Assembly (NCBI RefSeq): GCF_056712565.1 | Contig: NZ_CM160072.1 | Direction: 5' to 3' (one strand) | DNA: 64,000 bases | Shown here: positions 1 through 11,527 of the stretch, in pieces | How positions within the stretch are numbered: position 1 is the first letter of the stretch | How the letters are laid out: every line of letters begins with the position of its first letter | Notes under the pieces: model-generated | Told to the model about the DNA's origin: nothing | Database searches by the model: none | What the model saw: the letters and a program-made list of their open reading frames with translations, nothing else | Made by a program: the position numbers and the translations under genes

Positions 1-877
1 AGCCGCCCAGTGAACCTAAGCAACCCGCAGCTGCGCAGAAGGAAACAATGGCCCCGGCGGTGTCACCCAACGCCATCCGTGCGGCATCACCGAATGGCGA
101 AGCAGAAACGCGCAGTGCGGCATTAGGGATCATCCCCATAATCGCGGTGGTAGAAAGTACATAGCAAACGGCAGCAATCAATACCCCGCCAATGGTGGCG
201 ATAGGGACGTTGCGTTTCGGGTTTTTCACCACACCTGCGGCAACGGAGGCACTTTCCACACCGATGAACGACCACAGCGTAACGTTAAGGGTACTTTGAA
301 TCGCACCGAAGGTGCCCAGGCCGCTGACGTTCCATGCCGCCATATAGGTTTCACCACGGAACCAGAACCAGCCAAATACGGCAATCCCGACGATGGGGAT
401 CAGCGCCAGCACGGTAGCAACGGCCTGTACGCGGGTGATCATTTTCGGACCGACAATGTTCAGCAGGACGAAGATCCACAGCACCACGACGCAGGTGATG
501 GTTAATACCAATGGATCTTTCAGAATCGGGAAGAAGTAACTTAAATATCCTACGCCAATGACCACCATAGCGATATTGCCGATCCAGCAGGCCAGCCAGT
601 AGAGGACGTTGGTTTGATAACCGAGAAACGGGCCAAAGCAGCGGCGGGCGTAAGCGTAAGAACCACCAGGACTTGGGTCGAGGAACGACATTTTGGCGTA
701 TACCATCGAGAGCCCCAGCGCACCGATAATCGTCACCAACCATCCATAAATGGCAATCCCGCCAGTGGAGGCCAGGTTTGCAGGTAACAGAAAAACACCT
801 GACCCCATAATATTCCCCGACACCATCAGGGTGACGGGGATTAAGCCCACTTTGTGAGCATCAGCATCCGAAGACAT
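1..877 (-). CDS. adiC: Arginine:agmatine antiporter AdiC, partial (C-terminal part lies beyond the window start)
   Basis: Minus-strand reading from ATG at 875-877 gives [27 protein letters not shown]..., the AdiC N-terminus; ORF runs off the window edge; adiY/adiA neighbours as in K-12. Confidence 0.9.
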
Positions 878-1013
878 AATTAAACTCCTGCGAAGGCGAG
901 CTTCGTGACAATAAATTACGTCATATCATACGCCTGCATTCGATAGTTGAATTATTATCGGCCGGGTTATCGCTGATGCCGTTATTAATATAGCTCTTCG
1001 TTAAGGTTAAAAA

Positions 1014-1775
1014 TCAGGCGACAGTGCGTTCTCTGTGCTGACTAACATAATGCAGCGGCGTCATACCGTAGAAGTCTTTAAAGACAGAAATAAAGTACGA
1101 CGTACTGTTGTAGCCGCAGGACTGTGATACCTGAGAGATATTTTTACCGTCCATCATTAATTCATTTACGGCATAACGCATGCGGCAGGTGGTGATTATT
1201 TGGCTATAACTGGTGTTTTCGCTTTTCAGCTTTTTCTTTAACAGACTTGGGCTAAGACATAAACAACTGGCTACCATACTAAGATTCCAGTCTTTGTGGA
1301 TATCGCTTTCAATAATTTGATAAACGCTGTCACTTACACAATTACGTAACATATACATCATTAGTGAAAGGAATTTTTTACTGTCGAGAAAACGGGATAG
1401 CACAGTGAATAATAATGCACGTGTTCGTTCCTTTTCTGACTCAGTTTCAGCGGGCATCATGCTATGCTGCGCGGCAACGCGAAAGACGTCTGGCGTCAGG
1501 CATGGCAGGGTGAGGATGGGCGTAGCGCTACGTTGCCATACTGGTATTTGCGAGAGATCTTTATTCAGAAACCGGAGGTAATCTTTGATGATGTCGTGAC
1601 TAATATGAGCAACCAAAGTGTTATTAAGAGAGGAGACGTCGATAATATTATTTTCACAATTTAATAACGCCATGTGGTTAGCTTTAAGGCTAATAGGTTC
1701 TTTCCCATTCACCCTTATCCAGACATCTTTTTCAGTCAATAAAACAATACAAGGTTGGTCGCTGCAAATCCTCAT
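1014..1775 (-). CDS. adiY: AraC-family regulator of the arginine decarboxylase system
   Basis: 253-aa ORF, AraC-type C-terminal HTH, located between adiC and adiA. Confidence 0.9.
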   Translation of the reverse strand: MRICSDQPCIVLLTEKDVWIRVNGKEPISLKANHMALLNCENNIIDVSSLNNTLVAHISHDIIKDYLRFLNKDLSQIPVWQRSATPILTLPCLTPDVFRVAAQHSMMPAETESEKERTRALLFTVLSRFLDSKKFLSLMMYMLRNCVSDSVYQIIESDIHKDWNLSMVASCLCLSPSLLKKKLKSENTSYSQIITTCRMRYAVNELMMDGKNISQVSQSCGYNSTSYFISVFKDFYGMTPLHYVSQHRERTVA

Positions 1776-2110
1776 ACATGTACTCCTGAGTGCGAATAAA
1801 AGACCAGTTCTCGCTAAAGCGAAGCGATACCGGGAAATGGTTATATAATTGTATGATGAATATAAACATGCATAAAAATAACGAGTTTTACTAATATTAC
1901 AAATTTTTATAGTAATTTCTCATGTACATATTTTTTTACAGGCTAAAAAAAGGATAAATAACAGGCAAAAAAAAGCGCGGGGTGGGACCGCGCAAAAAGC
2001 ATGACATTTTTTGTTTGCAGCAATTTTTATGAAAACGTTGCCATACTTAAAAGGCCTCAAGCCAGGCGGCGTAATGTTATTTAACAATTACGCCTTCAGC
2101 GGAATAGTGG

Positions 2111-4378
2111 TTACGCTTTCACACACATAACGTGGTAAATACCGTCAATAATTTCTGTCCCTTCTGTTTCGTGTTCAAATCCAGGGAAATGATGGTCCCA
2201 GGATTGCAGCGAGCGTAAATAACTTACTTGCGGACTGTTTTTATCGCCGAAGTTTTCACCAGACAGCAGCATCGGGATTCCTGGCGGATACGGGATAACT
2301 GAGTTTGCCGCGATACGTCCTGGCAGATTTTCAATGGATACCAGTTCGACATTGTTGTCGACAATCGCGTTGTACGCTTCACGCGGGGTGATTTCCGCCA
2401 CCGGTAGGCCGGAATAGGCTTCATTCAACCGTGCGCCAGGGTTGTTTTCTTTCAGCCAGGCAAACATGGTGTCACCCAGATCGTGAATCCCTATGTTCGC
2501 GTAAGTGTCAGGATATTGTTCAACAAGTTCCGGCATCACCTGCGCCAGCGGTGTGTTGGCATCATAGTGGCGTTTGAAGGAGCAAAGGGTGTTAACCAGA
2601 GTCCCCCATTTCCCACGGGTCACGCCCATAGAGAACAGGAACATAATCTGGAAGTCAGTGGTACGGGTAGGCACAATGCCGTGGCGACCAAGCCAGGCTG
2701 TGACCAGCGCCGCCGGAACACCGGTTTCTTCCAGTTCACCATCTTCACCCATTCCCGGAGCAAGGATGCTGACTTTAATCGGGTCGAGCATACTCCAGTT
2801 ATCCGGAATATCTTTGAAGCCGTGCCAGCTTTCGCCCGGATGCATGACCCAGCAGTCCTGAACGGTGGTCAGCAGTTTGGTTGGTGCGTCAGCAAAGTCA
2901 TAGGTTTTGCCGGTTTGTGGGTCGGTGACGACTTCTTTGTTCCACGGTTTGAAGAACCAGCTACCGTCAGCGGTGAACTCTTTATACAGCCGCGCCATCG
3001 CCTGACGGAAATCAACCGCTTCGTCGATCACTTCCTGGGTCAGTGACAGGCCGCTGTTGCCGTCCATCATCGACACTGCCACGTCGTTGGATGCGCAGAT
3101 GGCATACAGCGGGGAGGTGGTGGCATGCATCATGTAGGCCTGGTTGAAGCGGGAGAAGTTAATCGCCCCACGACCTTCACGTACATGAATATAAGAGGCC
3201 TGGGACAGCGCATTCAGCAGTTTGTGGGTGGAGTGGGTGGCGAAAACGGTAGGACCGTTGTGATCGCCAGGTTCGCCGCGCATGGCATAGTGATCGGCAT
3301 AGATCGGGTTGAAACGTGCATAGCCGTACCAGGCTTCGTCAAAGTGCAGACGATCGGAGGTTTTTTCCAGCAGATCCTGCGCTTCTTTAGCGTTATAACA
3401 CACGCCGTCATAGGTACAGTTGGTCACCACGCAGTAAGACGGTTTTTGCCCGACTTTGTCTTTGGTCAGCGGGCTTTCACTGATTTTCTTCTGCAAGGTT
3501 TCAGGTTGCATTTCCTGCGGATAGATTGGCCCGATAATGCCGTAGCGGTTGCGGCTTGGCACCATGTAGACCGGTTTCGCGCCTGTCAGCATCAAGCCTT
3601 GTTCGATGGATTTATGGCAGTTACGGTCAACGACCACGACATCGTTATCGGTCATGCAAGCCTGCATGATGGTGCGGTTAGAGCCGGAAGTACCGACGAC
3701 TACCGACCAGGAGCGATCGGCACCAAATACGCGTGCGGCATATCTTTCGCTTTCGCCAAATGCGCCAGTATGGTCAAGCAAAGAACCGAGGGAAGTGCGT
3801 TCGATGCCCATGTCGGTGCGGAACAGATTTTCACCATAGTAGTCATGGTAGAAACGTCCGGCGGGTGTTTTGGTAAAACCAACGCCGCCCTGGTGGCCTG
3901 GCGCTGCCCAGGAATATTCATGGATGTCGCTATATTTCATCAGCGCGCTGAACAGTGGCGGCAATAGCTGCTGGCGGTAGCGGGTCATCGCGGCAACGGC
4001 GCGTCCGGCGATAAAGTCGGCAGTATCTTCCAGAATCCAGGCGAATTCATCGACAAGCTCCAGCAGGTCGCGATCCATTGCGGCGAGGGCTTTTTCCCGA
4101 TCGCCCAACAGGAAGACCGGCACGTTTTGTTGGCGCTCATGAAGCTTACCGATCAATTGTCTGACGTTTTGATGTTCGTCCGGATGTTCCATTTGATAGC
4201 TGAACATCAGGCAGTCAATGGCTTCGTTTGAAGAGAGAATGGCAAAACCATCATCAAAGGAGGTGGATTTAATCACGGTAACATTTTGCTGGCTTAAAGC
4301 ATCTGCCAGACGCTCAACGGCGTTACCGACCCAGGTGTCTTGATGGAGAAACTCGCTTTCAACAATTAATACTTTCAT
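2111..4378 (-). CDS. adiA: Biodegradative arginine decarboxylase (PLP-dependent, acid resistance)
   Basis: ORF track 756 aa starting MMKVLIVESEF; canonical start taken at second Met (755 aa); fold-type I decarboxylase paralogous to cadA. Confidence 0.95.
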   Translation of the reverse strand: MKVLIVESEFLHQDTWVGNAVERLADALSQQNVTVIKSTSFDDGFAILSSNEAIDCLMFSYQMEHPDEHQNVRQLIGKLHERQQNVPVFLLGDREKALAAMDRDLLELVDEFAWILEDTADFIAGRAVAAMTRYRQQLLPPLFSALMKYSDIHEYSWAAPGHQGGVGFTKTPAGRFYHDYYGENLFRTDMGIERTSLGSLLDHTGAFGESERYAARVFGADRSWSVVVGTSGSNRTIMQACMTDNDVVVVDRNCHKSIEQGLMLTGAKPVYMVPSRNRYGIIGPIYPQEMQPETLQKKISESPLTKDKVGQKPSYCVVTNCTYDGVCYNAKEAQDLLEKTSDRLHFDEAWYGYARFNPIYADHYAMRGEPGDHNGPTVFATHSTHKLLNALSQASYIHVREGRGAINFSRFNQAYMMHATTSPLYAICASNDVAVSMMDGNSGLSLTQEVIDEAVDFRQAMARLYKEFTADGSWFFKPWNKEVVTDPQTGKTYDFADAPTKLLTTVQDCWVMHPGESWHGFKDIPDNWSMLDPIKVSILAPGMGEDGELEETGVPAALVTAWLGRHGIVPTRTTDFQIMFLFSMGVTRGKWGTLVNTLCSFKRHYDANTPLAQVMPELVEQYPDTYANIGIHDLGDTMFAWLKENNPGARLNEAYSGLPVAEITPREAYNAIVDNNVELVSIENLPGRIAANSVIPYPPGIPMLLSGENFGDKNSPQVSYLRSLQSWDHHFPGFEHETEGTEIIDGIYHVMCVKA

Positions 4379-4576
4379 CATTGCTTACCCGGTTATGAAG
4401 GAATCTTCGTTGCGGGCAAGTATCTTCCGGCCTTTTCGGGCTGTAAAGCGCGTGAAAAACAAACATTTTTGAAATATTTATTTTTATAAACAACACGTTA
4501 TGTGATTATTTTAAATTATTTTCACTGCTTATTATCGACGGCTAAACTATTTTTTTGGCTGATACTGATATCGTCT

Positions 4577-5485
4577 TTAGCCGGGAAACGTCTGGCGGCG
4601 CTGTTGGCTAAGTTTGCGGTATTGTTGCGGCGACATGCCGACATATTTGCCGAACGTGCTGTAAAAACGGCTACTCGAACGAAAGCCTGCCGTCAGGGCA
4701 ATATCGAGAATACTTTTATCGGTATCGCTCAGTAACGCGCGAACGTGGTTGATGCGCATCGCGGTAATGTACTGTTTCATCGTCAATTGCATGACCCGCT
4801 GGAATATCCCCATTGCATAGTTGGCGTTAAGTTTGACGTGCTCAGCCACATCGTTGATGGTCAGCGCCTGATCATAGTTTTCGGCAATAAAGCCCAGCAT
4901 CTGGCTGACATAAAATTGCGCATGGCGCGAGACGCTGTTTTTGTGTGTGCGCGAGGTTTTATTGACCAGAATCGGTTCCCAGCCAGAGAGGCTAAATCGC
5001 TTGAGCATCAGGCCAATTTCATCAATGGCGAGCTGGCGAATTTGCTCGTTCTGACTGTTTAATTCCTGCTGCCAGCGGCGCACTTCAAACGGGCTAAGTT
5101 GCTGTGTCGCCAGTGATTTGATCACCATGCCGTGAGTGACGTGGTTAATCAGGTCTTTATCCAGCGGCCAGGAGAGAAACAGATGCATCGGCAGATTAAA
5201 AATCGCCATGCTCTGACAGGTTCCGGTATCTGTTAGTTGGTGCGGTGTACAGGCCCAGAACAGCGTGATATGACCCTGATTGATATTCACTTTTTCATTG
5301 TTGATCAGGTATTCCACATCGCCATCGAAAGGCACATTCACTTCGACCTGACCATGCCAGTGGCTGGTGGGCATGATATGCGGTGCGCGAAACTCAATTT
5401 CCATCCGCTGGTATTCTGAATACAGCGACAGTGGGCTACGGGTCTGCTTTTCGTCGCTGCTGCACATAAACGTATCTGTATTCAT
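4577..5485 (-). CDS. melR: Melibiose operon AraC-family activator
   Basis: 302-aa ORF with C-terminal AraC HTH, divergent from melA. Confidence 0.9.
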   Translation of the reverse strand: MNTDTFMCSSDEKQTRSPLSLYSEYQRMEIEFRAPHIMPTSHWHGQVEVNVPFDGDVEYLINNEKVNINQGHITLFWACTPHQLTDTGTCQSMAIFNLPMHLFLSWPLDKDLINHVTHGMVIKSLATQQLSPFEVRRWQQELNSQNEQIRQLAIDEIGLMLKRFSLSGWEPILVNKTSRTHKNSVSRHAQFYVSQMLGFIAENYDQALTINDVAEHVKLNANYAMGIFQRVMQLTMKQYITAMRINHVRALLSDTDKSILDIALTAGFRSSSRFYSTFGKYVGMSPQQYRKLSQQRRQTFPG

Positions 5486-5767
5486 GGATGACTCTCTTTC
5501 CTGGAATATCAGAATTATGGCAGGAGTGAGGGAGGATGACTGCGAACAGGCGCACGGTTTTATTCCTCTCCCTGGAGGTGCGAGGAGAGCGGATGAGAAG
5601 ATTTGGGTCGATTATTCAGCTTTTCAGGTAATTTATTCCCATAAACTCAGATCTATTGATGTGCCACTTAGGATCTGAGTTTTCGGGAATGCTCAACCGG
5701 GAAACCGGAGGTTTTCTGCGATATCGCCTGCCATGATGAAGTTATTCAAGCAAGCCAGGAGATCTGC
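5486..5767. promoter_or_regulatory. Divergent melR / melA promoter-operator region (MelR and CRP sites expected from K-12 knowledge; individual sites not mapped here)
   Basis: Intergenic region between divergent melR and melA; sites assigned from established K-12 biology, not located in the sequence. Confidence 0.4.
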
Positions 5768-7123
5768 ATGATGTCTGCACCCAAAATTACATTTATCGGC
5801 GCTGGTTCGACGATTTTCGTTAAAAATATTCTTGGTGATGTGTTCCATCGAGAGGCGCTGAAAACGGCGCATATTGCCCTGATGGATATCGATCCCACCC
5901 GCCTGGAAGAGTCGCACATTGTGGTGCGTAAGCTGATGGATTCAGCAGGGGCCAGCGGCAAAATCACCTGCCACACCCAACAGAAAGAAGCCTTACAGGA
6001 TGCTGATTTTGTGGTGGTGGCATTTCAGATTGGCGGTTATGAACCTTGCACGGTGACTGATTTCGAGGTCTGTAAGCGGCATGGTCTGGAACAAACCATT
6101 GCCGATACGCTGGGGCCGGGCGGCATTATGCGTGCGCTACGTACCATTCCGCACCTGTGGCAGATTTGCGAGGACATGACGGAAGTCTGCCCCGATGCCA
6201 CCATGCTCAACTACGTTAATCCAATGGCGATGAATACCTGGGCGATGTATGCCCGCTATCCGCATATCAAGCAGGTAGGGCTGTGCCATTCGGTGCAGGG
6301 AACGGCGGAAGAGCTGGCGCGTGACCTCAATATCGACCCGGCTACGCTGCGTTACCGTTGCGCAGGTATCAACCATATGGCGTTTTACCTGGAACTGGAG
6401 CGCAAAACCGCCGACGGCAGTTACGTGAATCTCTACCCGGAACTGCTGGCGGCTTATGAAGCAGGGCAGGCACCGAAGCCAAATATTCATGGTAATACTC
6501 GCTGCCAGAATATTGTGCGTTACGAAATGTTCAAAAAGCTGGGCTACTTCGTCACAGAATCGTCAGAACATTTTGCTGAGTACACACCGTGGTTTATTAA
6601 GCCAGGTCGTGAGGATTTGATTGAGCGTTATAAAGTACCGCTGGATGAGTACCCGAAACGCTGCGTCGAGCAGCTGGCGAACTGGCATAAAGAGCTGGAG
6701 GAGTATAAAAACGCCTCCCGGATTGATATTAAACCGTCACGGGAATATGCCAGCACAATCATGAACGCTATCTGGACTGGCGAGCCGAGTGTGATTTATG
6801 GCAATGTCCGTAACGATGGCTTGATTGATAACCTGCCACAAGGATGTTGCGTGGAAGTGGCCTGTCTGGTTGATGCTAATGGCATTCAGCCGACCAAAGC
6901 CGGTACGCTACCTTCGCATCTGGCCGCCCTGATGCAAACCAACATCAACGTACAGACGCTGCTGACAGAAGCTATTCTTACGGAAAATCGCGACCGTGTT
7001 TACCACGCCGCGATGATGGACCCGCATACTGCCGCCGTGCTGGGCATTGACGAAATATATGCTCTTGTTGACGACCTGATTGCCGCCCACGGCGACTGGC
7101 TGCCAGGCTGGTTGCACCGTTAA
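5768..7123 (+). CDS. melA: Alpha-galactosidase (NAD/Mn-dependent, GH4)
   Basis: 451-aa ORF MMSAPKITFIGAGSTIF..., Rossmann N-terminus typical of GH4; stop TAA at 7121-7123. Confidence 0.95.
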   Translation: MMSAPKITFIGAGSTIFVKNILGDVFHREALKTAHIALMDIDPTRLEESHIVVRKLMDSAGASGKITCHTQQKEALQDADFVVVAFQIGGYEPCTVTDFEVCKRHGLEQTIADTLGPGGIMRALRTIPHLWQICEDMTEVCPDATMLNYVNPMAMNTWAMYARYPHIKQVGLCHSVQGTAEELARDLNIDPATLRYRCAGINHMAFYLELERKTADGSYVNLYPELLAAYEAGQAPKPNIHGNTRCQNIVRYEMFKKLGYFVTESSEHFAEYTPWFIKPGREDLIERYKVPLDEYPKRCVEQLANWHKELEEYKNASRIDIKPSREYASTIMNAIWTGEPSVIYGNVRNDGLIDNLPQGCCVEVACLVDANGIQPTKAGTLPSHLAALMQTNINVQTLLTEAILTENRDRVYHAAMMDPHTAAVLGIDEIYALVDDLIAAHGDWLPGWLHR

Positions 7124-7770
7124 GGGGTAATCGCTTCCGGCGCTCTGGTGATTAAGCCAAAGCGCCGTAGCTGGCGGCAATGAAAGCGGGCGAGGAATAT
7201 CACCGTCGTTAATGCGCCCAGTAGTGCGCAGAACATATCGGATTGCGTATCCCACGGGTCGCCTTGAGTACCGAGAAAATCATCTGCGCCCTGGCCCATT
7301 GCCAGCGCTGCCCACCACTCGATTAACTCATACATCGCGCTTATCGCCAGCGCGACACAACAGACCAGAAACGCCACCATTTTACGCCCGCGAACGTACA
7401 TCCCGCGCACGAGGATCTCTCGTGCCACCAGTGCAGGCACCAGCCCCTGGAAAAAATGCCCCAGTTTATCATACGGATTACGGCTCAACCCCAGCCATTC
7501 CTGCACCTCAAAACCAACGGGGACTTTCGCGTAGGTGTATTGCCCGCCGACCATCAGGATGATGGCGTGAAAGAAAATGAGCGTATAGAGCAGCGGCGTT
7601 AACGGGTAACGTTTAGCGGTGGCAAGCAGTAGCGGCACGACAATAATCACCGGTGTCACTTCCATCAGCCAGGTGAGTTTGTCATGGGCCGAAATGCCGG
7701 TATAAATCAGGATTAACGTTAGCGCCAGTGCGCCGGTGTTAAGAATTAACGGCTTGAGTGTGCGGGTCAT
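7120..7770 (-). CDS. yjdF: Inner membrane protein YjdF-like (216 aa); stop codon overlaps melA stop
   Basis: Hydrophobic 216-aa ORF MTRTLKPLILNTGALALTLILIY...; convergent with melA, sharing TTAA at 7120-7123. Confidence 0.75.
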   Translation of the reverse strand: MTRTLKPLILNTGALALTLILIYTGISAHDKLTWLMEVTPVIIVVPLLLATAKRYPLTPLLYTLIFFHAIILMVGGQYTYAKVPVGFEVQEWLGLSRNPYDKLGHFFQGLVPALVAREILVRGMYVRGRKMVAFLVCCVALAISAMYELIEWWAALAMGQGADDFLGTQGDPWDTQSDMFCALLGALTTVIFLARFHCRQLRRFGLITRAPEAITP

Positions 7771-7892
7771 GGTGAGTTCGCAAGTCAGGGAAAATACTGA
7801 CTATTGACCAGTAAGCGTGAAATTACAATCGCAAAAGAGGTGGCCCAGGGGGATCACCTGGCAGCATGCTGCCAGGCGCTGGGCCGAAGAGG

Positions 7893-9539
7893 TTACTTAG
7901 TGCAGTTCGCGCACTGTTTGTTGACGATCTGCTGGAAGAAGTCGTTACCTTTGTCATCGACCAGGATAAACGCCGGGAAATCTTCTACTTCGATTTTCCA
8001 GATAGCTTCCATACCCAGCTCCGGATAAGCGACGCATTCCAGATGCTTGATGCTCTGCTGCGCCAGTACCGCCGCCGGACCGCCGATGCTACCGAGGTAG
8101 AAGCCGCCGTGTTTATGGCACGCGTCGGTAACCTGCTGGCTGCGGTTACCTTTCGCCAGCATGATCATGCTGCCGCCGTGGGATTGCAGCAGATCCACGT
8201 AGGAGTCCATACGACCTGCGGTGGTTGGGCCAAGTGAACCTGATGGATAACCGGCAGGCGTTTTCGCCGGACCCGCGTAGTAGATCGGGTGATCTTTGAT
8301 GTACTGCGGCAGTTCTTTACCGGCGTCAATCAGCTCTTTCAGCTTGGCGTGTGCAATATCGCGACCCACGATAATGGTGCCGGTGAGCGACAAGCGGGTG
8401 GATACCGGGTATTGCGAAAGCTGGGCAAGGATCTCTTTCATCGGGCGGTTAAGGTCGACTTTCACTGCTTCGCCTTCACCTGCCTGACGCAGTTCTTCTG
8501 GAATGTACTGGCCTGGATTGTGTTCCAGTTTTTCGATCCAGATACCTTCGCGGTTGATTTTCGCTTTAATGTTACGGTCAGCGGAGCAGGAGACTCCCAT
8601 GCCTACCGGGCAGGATGCGCCGTGACGTGGCAGACGGATAACGCGGATGTCGTGCGCGAAGTATTTACCGCCAAACTGCGCGCCAAGACCGAGTTTCTGG
8701 GCCTCTTCCAGCAGTTCCTGTTCCAGCTGGATATCGCGGAACGCCTGACCATGTTCGTTCCCTTCCGTCGGCAGTTCATCGTAATAGTGAGCGCTTGCTA
8801 ACTTGACGGTTTTCAGGTTGGTTTCCGCAGACGTACCGCCAATCACAAACGCGATATGGTACGGCGGGCAGGCTGCAGTACCGAGGGTACGCATTTTCTC
8901 GACGAGGAAGTTTTTCAGTTTGCCGGGCGTCAGCAGGGCTTTGGTTTCCTGGTAGAGATACGTTTTGTTGGCAGAGCCGCCGCCTTTAGCGACACAGAGG
9001 AATTTGTACTCATCGCCATCTACCGCGTACAGGTCGATTTGCGCAGGCAGGTTCGTGCCGGTGTTGACCTCTTTATACATGTCCAGCGGCGCGTTCTGTG
9101 AATAGCGCAGGTTATCTTCGATATAGGTGTTATAGACGCCTTTCGACAGCGCTTCTTCATCACCGCCACCGGTCCACACGCGCTGACCTTTTTTACCGAC
9201 GATGATCGCGGTGCCGGTATCCTGGCAGGTCGGCAGCACGCCTTTAGCGGCGATTTCGGAGTTTCTTAAGAATTGCAGCGCCACGTACTTGTCGTTTTCG
9301 CTGGCTTCTGGATCGTGAAGAATAGCCGCAACCTGTTTCTGGTGTGCCGGGCGGAGCATGAAAGAAGCGTCGTGAAAGGCTTGCTGCGCCAGCAGGGTCA
9401 GGGCTTCTGGTTCCACTTTCAGGATGGTTTCGCCGTCGAAGTCGGCAACGCTAACGTAATCAGAAGTGAGTAGATAGTATTCGGTATTGTCTTTCCCCAT
9501 CGGGAAAGGTGCCTGGTAGATAAAGGGTTTGTTTGACAT
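7893..9539 (-). CDS. fumB: Class I (Fe-S) fumarate hydratase, anaerobic
   Basis: 548-aa [27 protein letters not shown]...; adjacent to dcuB as in K-12. Confidence 0.95.
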
Positions 9540-9616
9540 AGCTTCCAGCCTGTAACTCTGTATTTGTTATTCGAAAATGGCGTGCCGCGTAGTCACGGGC
9601 GGCACGCAAAGTGCAT

Positions 9617-10957
9617 TTATAAGAACCCGTACATCGCGGCGAAGATCCAGCCGAAGACGCACGATACGCTCACACCAATCAACCCCGGCAGAATAAAGCT
9701 GTGGTTGATGACGAAGCGACCGATGTGGGTGGTGCCGGAACGGTCAAACTGAATCGCTGCCAGATCGCTCGGATAAGTCGGCAGGATGTAATAACCGTAG
9801 CAAGCCGGTGCTGAAGCCACGATGTATGCCGGATCAACGCCGATCGCCAGCGCGACCGGAACAATCGCCGCCAGCGCCGCAGCCTGAGAGTTTACAAACT
9901 TGGAAACCAGCAGCAGAACAATGGCATAGGCCCACGGATACTCTTTCACCATTTCACCCAGTACGCCCTGAATTTCAGACATATGCGCACCGAACATGGT
10001 TTCAGCCATCCATGCGATACCGTACACCGCCACGATGGCGATCATACCGGAACGGAAGACTTCGTTTTTTGAGATAGACGCGGGATTGGTTTTGGTCAGG
10101 ATAATAATCAGCGCCCCGGTCAGCAGCATAAACATCTGAATAACCAGTACCATCGACAGCGGTTTGCCGCCGAAGGATGGACGCAGGTCCGAATCAGCAC
10201 CAAGAAGGGCGACTACAGCGATTGCCCCGAGGAAGATCCACATTGCCAGCCAGTTGCTTTTCGGCAGTTTTTTATCCAGCAGCGTCGCGGTATCACCGTA
10301 AACATACTCACGGTTTTCCGGTACGGAGATGAATTTTTGGAACTCTTCGTCTTTATCCAGATCTTTACCGCGGAACCAGCTGAAGATACCGATCGCCAGG
10401 ATACCGATTAACGTCGATGGAATGGTGATTGCCAGCAGGTCGAGGAACTCAAGATGGCGACCATCAAAGGTGACATTACCCAGCATCGCAACCAAAGATA
10501 CGACCGCAACCGACACCGGACTGGCGATAATCCCCATCTGTGCACCGATAGAACTTGCCGCCATCGGACGTTCCGGACGGATGTTGTTCTTAATAGCAAC
10601 GTCGTAGATGATCGGCAGAATGGTGTAAACCACATGACCCGTACCGCAAAGAATGGTCAGCGTACAGGTCACAAACGGCGCGACAATTGAGACATATTTC
10701 GGGTTGCGACGCAGCAGCTTCTCGGCAATTTGCAGCATGACATCAAGACCGCCCGAAGCTTGCAAGGTCGCCGATGCCGCCACCACCGCAATGATAACCA
10801 GCATGACATCAACCGGTGGTTTACCTGGCTGAAGGTGGAAGACGAAGACCAGAATGACCAGACCGATACCGCCTAATAAACCCAGCGCGATACCCCCCTT
10901 TCTGGCACCATAAAACAGACATATCAGTATTATGATAAGTTGGATAGTAAATAACAT
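9617..10957 (-). CDS. dcuB: Anaerobic C4-dicarboxylate transporter
   Basis: 446-aa polytopic membrane [25 protein letters not shown]... Confidence 0.95.
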
Positions 10958-11527
10958 GTGTGAACCCTCGCGATAATCCTATTTAAATTTTTGCTGAATA
11001 GATCACAGTCACGTTCTGTTTTGTATGAACTGTTTTCAGAGCCTGACTAAATATCCGTTTGGTCGTTACCGGCTTGAGCAAATACCTCACAGTGAATATT
11101 GGCTGATTAAAGCAGCGGCAAATTTATGCACTGTGATAAGCGGCTTTTTCAGAGAGAAAGACTCTCTGGCGATGGGTTTATAGTTTGTACAGCGCAGATG
11201 TTAATGTTTTGTTTGCTGTTATCTTATTGATATTTATCGGTCTGTTTTTTGTTCTCAGGGCAGGTATCATTAGGTTTATAGATTAATCTGATCTACCCAT
11301 TTGTGGGTAAAAATACACATAATGTGGGTGACATAATAGTTAATTAACTTTTGTTAGCGTTTTGAAATTAAAAACACCGTTCATCTGAAGAGATATTAAT
11401 TTTTAGCGATGATGGAGGGATAATTATATTTGATCTGGCACAAGTTTTACTGATGAACGATGTAACTTGTGCCAGGGGGATTTTGCATTACGGTAATAAT
11501 TATTACTTACAGATAACCAGCGATCCG

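Follow-up and report, generated by a model that had tools for sequence, protein, structure and literature searches.

An old deletion of the melibiose permease gene melB, with melA and melR retained, at the mel locus of Escherichia coli ATCC 11775

The stretch of DNA considered here, called the window throughout, comprises 64,000 nucleotides of contig NZ_CM160072.1 (NCBI RefSeq assembly GCF_056712565.1), and its melibiose (mel) locus is the subject of this account. The six-frame open reading frame (ORF) list and the RefSeq annotation place adiA, melR, melA, yjdF, fumB, dcuB and dcuR in the order found in E. coli K-12, minus melB, the gene for melibiose permease. Positions 5768-7770 were 100% identical by megablast to E. 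coli DSM 30083 (= ATCC 11775; NZ_CP033092.2), whose RefSeq record annotates identical overlapping melA and yjdF coding sequences. The alpha-galactosidase gene melA (5768-7123, plus strand) is intact, encoding 451 residues that score 734 bits against NCBIfam NF011657 (cutoff 486), and shares 97.6% nucleotide identity with K-12 melA, the proteins being 99% identical. Its stop codon, TAA at 7121-7123, overlaps that of the convergent yjdF (7120-7770, minus strand; a DUF2238 inner-membrane protein of 216 residues), which is the reverse complement of 7120-7122, and the two share the tetranucleotide TTAA at 7120-7123, as sequence, ORF list and RefSeq agree. A sequence-only reading of the window had described this overlap and concluded that it leaves melB no space; both points hold, and searches of the 64-kb window with K-12 MelB (tblastn) and with the K-12 segment that was lost (blastn) gave no match. 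Set against the complete regulon of the K-12/Salmonella type (melR plus melAB), the window contains melR and melA and lacks the adjacent GPH-family symporter gene melB. Very probably the locus is a melB deletion allele that arose once, long ago, in an Escherichia ancestor, left a 20-bp filler and a YjdF protein seven residues longer, was inherited by phylogroup B2 and by sister species, and still works as half an operon.

The endpoints of the deletion were mapped by BLAST against K-12, the alignment that the sequence-only reading had proposed. Window positions 1846-7123 correspond to positions 1-5267 of the K-12 locus and end exactly at the melA stop, and positions 7144-11213 correspond to K-12 6933-11001 and begin at yjdF codon 209; between them, 1,665 bp of K-12 are replaced in the window by the 20 bp GGGGTAATCGCTTCCGGCGC (7124-7143). 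The K-12 segment lost consists of the 102-bp melA-melB spacer, the 1,422-bp melB, a 138-bp spacer containing repetitive extragenic palindromic (REP) sequence, and the yjdF stop codon. The overlap of melA and yjdF is a direct product of this junction, so that no chance statistic is needed for it; 1,267 complete genomes carry exactly the same overlap. In general form the junction reads as the melA stop, the filler G(G/A)(G/T)GT(A/T)(A/G)T(C/T)GCTTCCGGCGC and yjdF codon 209, to which window positions 7121-7146 conform, and it can be searched for with the pattern TAAG[GA][GT]GT[AT][AG]T[CT]GCTTCCGGCGCTCTGG. With one to three substitutions the filler is also present in seven further loci of the collections described below (L003, L004, L080 and L087-L090). 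A search for microhomology found no direct repeat bracketing the endpoints of the deleted interval in K-12. Within the deleted K-12 segment the best match to the filler is TTCCGGCGC, the 3' arm of a hairpin in the melA-melB spacer, where about 15 of the 20 bases agree by eye with one gap; an origin from this arm is not claimed, because 11-28% of shuffled fillers score equally well (23-28% for TTCCGGCGC), and TATTCCGG at the 3' end of melB, which resembles the filler less closely, was dismissed.

The consequences for YjdF follow from the same junction. The protein has 209 residues in K-12, which bears out the sequence-only remark that the window's 216 residues are a few more than expected, and 205-210 residues in intact copies from Citrobacter and Kluyvera; the match to NCBIfam NF007369 spans residues 1-208 of a 209-position profile. 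With the native yjdF stop lost, translation crosses the filler and terminates within the melA stop, adding seven residues (210-216, APEAITP, encoded by 7123-7143), so that the attribution of the longer protein to a deletion junction near the 3' end of the gene also proved sound. In alleles lacking melB the protein has 216 residues and ends in ...LITRAPEA(I/T)TP, as in the window, and this tail is unique to them; since intact outgroup copies have 205-210 residues, the tail is derived. Four of these alleles (L003, L080, L088 and L090) read CTAA in place of TTAA, and their yjdF stop is TAG. A tblastn alignment of residues 1-215 to the Kluyvera locus L015 had raised the possibility that the tail is ancestral, which was rejected because the L015 ORF has 207 residues and intact outgroup copies lie in the range just given. 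Two other Kluyvera copies, those of K. ascorbata (L016) and Kluyvera genomosp. 3 (L023), have 183 and 180 residues with unrelated C-terminal sequence; they are frameshifted or truncated and are probably pseudogenes. Synonymous diversity of yjdF (window 7147-7770) is unusually high within E. coli, with synonymous divergence (dS) between window and K-12 of 0.22, against about 0.10 for melA and 0.09 for fumB, and yjdF haplotypes do not follow the melB state: the yjdF genes of the melB-less L088 and L090 lie nearer to those of melB-positive alleles than to that of the window.

The allele is common in E. coli. In a collection of 5,426 complete genomes, 5,413 of which were matched by the melA-yjdF query, the two genes are contiguous as in the window in 1,267 (about 23%), a count repeated with a second query, and these 2-kb alleles are 96.2-100% identical to the window. 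K-12 melB was detected in 4,136 genomes (about 76%), leaving 1,290 with no melB match, and the fact that the junction and melB classes cover almost the whole collection agrees with there being no further copy in the melB-less genomes. In terms of gene content the absence is already published: in Table 5 of Touchon et al. (2009), "melB, melibiose permease" is one of the activities that B2 strains specifically lack (PMC2617782), Touchon et al. (2020) report a negative association between B2 and melibiose degradation genes (PMC7314097), and strain 30083T is placed in a subspecies "identical to phylogroup B2" (PMC4334874). The lack of melB in the window is thus the standard B2 allele and ordinary. 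One melB-less E. coli, L087, differs from other E. coli by 2.3-2.9% in dcuB and also in adiA (usable alignment rows, the row of the window left out), and the allele is therefore not strictly confined to typical B2.

Some further disruptions of the pathway were seen among the matches. Insertion sequence (IS) elements interrupt melB in some strains otherwise melB-positive (matches H41 and H47), namely ISEc35 in strain 3090 and IS1 in LR-48, and ISApl1 lies within melA in strain SC516 (H71); such insertions are additional, recent ways in which the pathway has been lost. Strain WP5-S18-ESBL-07 (H70, NZ_AP022159.1 4606279-4606438) carries a 165-bp fragment of the melB 3' end, 94.5% identical, beside crfC and away from the normal mel context. 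In strain PI7 (H40, NZ_CP074033.1) the query matched in its yjdF part and not in melA, which suggests a larger mel deletion resembling that of the O80:H2 "70mel" strains (PMC11945584).

The age of the deletion was judged from a MelA scan of one genome per GTDB species, which gave 80 loci, four Escherichia lineages among them. Identical endpoints, the same filler with one or two substitutions and a 216-residue YjdF were found in E. whittamii (L003), which is cryptic clade 2 (PMC10927642), in a genome labelled E. coli SCPM-O-B-8794 (L004) and in Escherichia sp. E1V33 (L080). Their melA genes are 91.7-93.7% identical to that of the window at dS of 0.33-0.45. Substitutions are also heavy in the first 100 bp next to the junction. 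The nearest complete E. coli genome is no closer than 92.6% to L004, which excludes recent transfer. A junction shared by three species-level Escherichia lineages whose flanks are 92-94% identical places the deletion before E. coli itself rather than in one strain. As to polarity, Salmonella, Kluyvera and the melB-retaining Citrobacter have melB next to melA and, in loci that contain yjdF, that gene after melB. The spacer between melA and melB is conserved among them and in K-12, and K-12 MelB is 84-86% identical to the Citrobacter and Salmonella proteins, which are 87-88% identical to each other. From this gene order and the normal distance of MelB it follows that presence of melB is ancestral at the family level and that the Escherichia melB-less allele is a true deletion. 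A distant foreign origin of E. coli melB, raised by saturated dS against Citrobacter, was rejected, as fast evolution of MelB is common to all genera and the K-12 protein lies at an ordinary distance. Judged by these comparisons, the arrangement is ancestral for ATCC 11775's own lineage and derived relative to Citrobacter, Salmonella and Kluyvera. The sequence-only reading had named, as an outcome that would count against it, an arrangement ancestral in a lineage that never had melB; the first part of that description fits the strain's own lineage, and the second does not, given that outgroups keep melA-melB-yjdF.

Loss of melB with retention of melA was also seen in other genera. Five Citrobacter loci (L011, L020, L025, L026 and L071) have melR-melA followed by a convergent yjdF and no melB (about positions 7356-7425 of those loci), with two junction types that contain REP-like spacers of about 55-65 bp, neither of them related to the Escherichia junction; from these unrelated junctions it follows that melB was lost more than once, in independent events that left melA in place. 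Loci L039-L044 (Raoultella, Klebsiella oxytoca, K. spallanzanii and Enterobacter sp. 10-1) likewise have melR-melA with no melB match downstream of melA (about 7350), and in L039 the next sizeable gene after melA is a convergent DnaJ/CbpA-like ORF at 7812-8729. A melR-melA-melB locus of ordinary enterobacterial type, its MelA 90% identical to that of E. coli, lies on a contig titled Chryseobacterium sp. 18061 (L031); the likely cause is contamination or mislabelling of the assembly.

The lac operon, too, is induced by melibiose, and melB mutants stay melibiose-positive if lacY is intact. That the window keeps alpha-galactosidase without an adjacent dedicated permease, as the sequence-only reading supposed, is borne out by the intact melA and melR; the fermentation check that it proposed is answered in the literature, where the strain is nonetheless melibiose-positive. 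DSM 30083T was positive for D-melibiose and alpha-methyl-D-galactoside in OmniLog PM01, was melibiose-positive on API 20E and grew on melibiose in M9 (PMC4334874). The same study found it positive for lactose, beta-galactosidase and raffinose. From the published growth it follows that loss of the dedicated permease does not abolish melibiose use. In the literature on B2 melibiose phenotypes nothing direct was found besides this type-strain paper. LacY catalyses melibiose transport (PMC4308713), and uptake in ATCC 11775 must occur through another galactoside permease, most probably LacY. The dN/dS ratio among melB-less lineages is 0.012-0.029 for melA and 0.017-0.045 for melR, over dS of 0.2-0.46, from which it follows that selection has maintained both genes since the deletion. 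The most probable scheme begins with a deletion in an Escherichia ancestor that removed everything between the melA and yjdF stops, with other E. coli carrying the intact melAB allele. In the melB-less strains melibiose would enter by LacY, the mel promoter would be activated by MelR and melibiose together with CRP, and the monocistronic melA message would give alpha-galactosidase to split melibiose into galactose and glucose.

Other histories of the locus were weighed against this one. A recent deletion specific to ATCC 11775 is what a bare comparison with K-12 would suggest, and nothing more speaks for it; it is refuted by the 1,267 genomes and by the three divergent Escherichia lineages with the same junction, and retains practically no probability. 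A primitive melB-less state, with melB inserted de novo in lineages of the K-12 type, would account for a melB-less allele that is old and diverse and for a melB that is unusually uniform in dS, in mismatch relative to its flanks and in the number of copies at 99% identity or more (see below). Against insertion stand the outgroup gene order with its conserved spacer, the shorter outgroup YjdF and the ordinary orthologue distance of MelB, all of which make the K-12 allele a descendant of the family-level arrangement that was at most re-spread within E. coli by homologous recombination; the insertion is accordingly very improbable.

Repeated independent deletion at a mechanistic hotspot draws on the losses in Citrobacter (L011/L020 and L025/L026/L071), Raoultella and the Klebsiella oxytoca group, yet those losses in other genera have entirely different junctions, whereas endpoints and the non-templated 20-bp filler are common to all Escherichia melB-less alleles, which differ by point substitutions only. 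K-12 has no direct repeat at the endpoints, moreover, and from the differing Citrobacter junctions it follows that the Escherichia junction is one old event and not a hotspot; this alternative is, if anything, a shade less probable than insertion. That melA and melR are decaying leftovers in a strain unable to use melibiose might be read from the textbook figure of about 75% melibiose-positive E. coli (quoted in PMC11546641), which is numerically near the 76% of genomes with melB. Neither ORF is shortened, however, and each scores well above its NCBIfam cutoff; dN/dS is 0.01-0.04, and three assays of the strain were positive, so decay ranks with insertion as very improbable. A single old deletion leaving a functional half-operon thus remains by far the most probable account. 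Several points nevertheless weigh against it. Its age relative to E. coli is supported by three non-coli lineages and the divergent E. coli L087, and E. albertii, E. fergusonii, E. marmotae and E. ruysiae are absent from the 80 loci returned. The best match of the 20-bp filler in the deleted K-12 segment is at chance level. The absence of melB from the ATCC 11775 chromosome outside the window is a reading compatible with the genome counts and with Touchon et al. (2009). Finally, the LacY route is deduced, and raffinose use means that a RafB-type permease could contribute.

Where melB is present, it is unexpectedly uniform. Six melB-positive genomes were compared, namely K-12, EDL933, three others and the divergent Escherichia sp. 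MOD1-EC7003 (L005), and dS among them is 0.006-0.039 for melB, against 0.026-0.134 for melA, 0.07-0.20 for yjdF and 0.06-0.16 for fumB. Between K-12 and MOD1-EC7003 the flanks show about 3.3% mismatch and the melB segment 10 mismatches in 1,650 bp, the drop coinciding with the boundaries of the indel. In the complete-genome collection, identity to K-12 reaches at least 99% in 4,127 of 4,136 melB copies, but in only 2,926 of 5,399 copies of melA. By the outgroup comparison melB is not an intrinsically slow-evolving gene. These figures, from a small sample of sequences, suggest that the melB-positive haplotype may coalesce later than the sequence on either side, having swept or been spread again by homologous recombination, and that the flanks exchange freely with the older melB-less class. 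A bolder extension, which we hold tentatively and at somewhat less than even confidence, is that presence or absence of melB is a trans-species polymorphism of Escherichia, in which the melB-less allele has persisted since before E. coli separated from the cryptic clades and the melB-positive allele (about 76%) is younger, swept or re-introduced. If so, such a polymorphism would be a sign of long-term selection, varying with niche, between a dedicated Na+/melibiose symporter and uptake by LacY only.

The remaining features of the locus bear on its expression. The activator gene melR (4577-5485, minus strand; AraC family, acting on the mel promoter) is divergent from melA and intact, with 302 residues scoring 634.6 bits against the MelR equivalog model NF007693 (cutoff 253) and 98.9% nucleotide identity with K-12. 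The divergent regulatory region between the two genes (5486-5767) was examined in an alignment of seven alleles (A1). Its promoter-proximal half is conserved across Escherichia alleles, with alignment columns 131-282 largely invariant. A side observation is that the melR-proximal half is hypervariable (window about 5545-5615, columns 60-130), B2 alleles (the window and L088) differing from K-12 at roughly half of the positions of this block, and that the melA-proximal half is nearly invariant between Escherichia species. Beyond melA, the terminator scan found no intrinsic terminator on the plus strand before 7898, and Rfam matched no family in window positions 4000-11500. An inverted repeat, CGGCGCT ... 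AGCGCCG, lies across the junction at 7138-7167 (RNA fold z = -1.9 on the plus strand and -2.65 on the minus strand); this hairpin lacks a U-tract, is not a canonical terminator and folds only marginally better than shuffled sequence. With melA abutting yjdF and no intrinsic terminator recognisable behind it, induced melA transcription probably runs on into yjdF in antisense.

The practical importance of these results is small. The E. coli type strain and the whole of B2, which includes major extraintestinal pathogens and probiotics of the Nissle type, carry melR-melA without melB, and the type strain still uses melibiose. Whether a genome has melB therefore says little about its melibiose phenotype, which matters for genome-scale metabolic models and for diagnostic schemes. 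The evolutionary side is mildly interesting, as the mel locus is a small example of a presence/absence polymorphism persisting under recombination. What the present analysis adds is the junction at base resolution, the derived nature of the YjdF tail, the sharing of the old allele between species, the purifying selection on melA and melR, and the low diversity of melB.

In comparison with known systems, the absence of melB from B2 in Touchon et al. concerns the same gene, phylogroup and locus, with the window representing the B2 type strain; relative to the table and association cited from that work, the junction, the YjdF extension and the cryptic-clade allele come from the present analysis. 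The deletion in Shiga toxin-producing and enteropathogenic E. coli (STEC/EPEC) O80:H2, "70mel", removes the whole mel operon (melR, melA and melB), has a 70-bp insert and leaves the strains melibiose-negative (PMC11945584). It resembles the window in being a mel-locus deletion with a short filler of unexplained origin, but the window has lost melB alone in a melibiose-positive strain, so that a relationship was rejected and the two are independent events. Laboratory melB mutants with uptake through LacY are functionally equivalent, being melA-positive, melB-negative and lactose-positive, whereas the configuration of ATCC 11775 is natural, ancient and lineage-fixed, with LacY as its presumed carrier. 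As for the melR/melAB system of K-12, the melR, regulatory region and melA of the window are orthologous and intact, but the window has lost the second operon gene together with the spacer before it and the REP spacer after it, and melA ends directly against the convergent yjdF.

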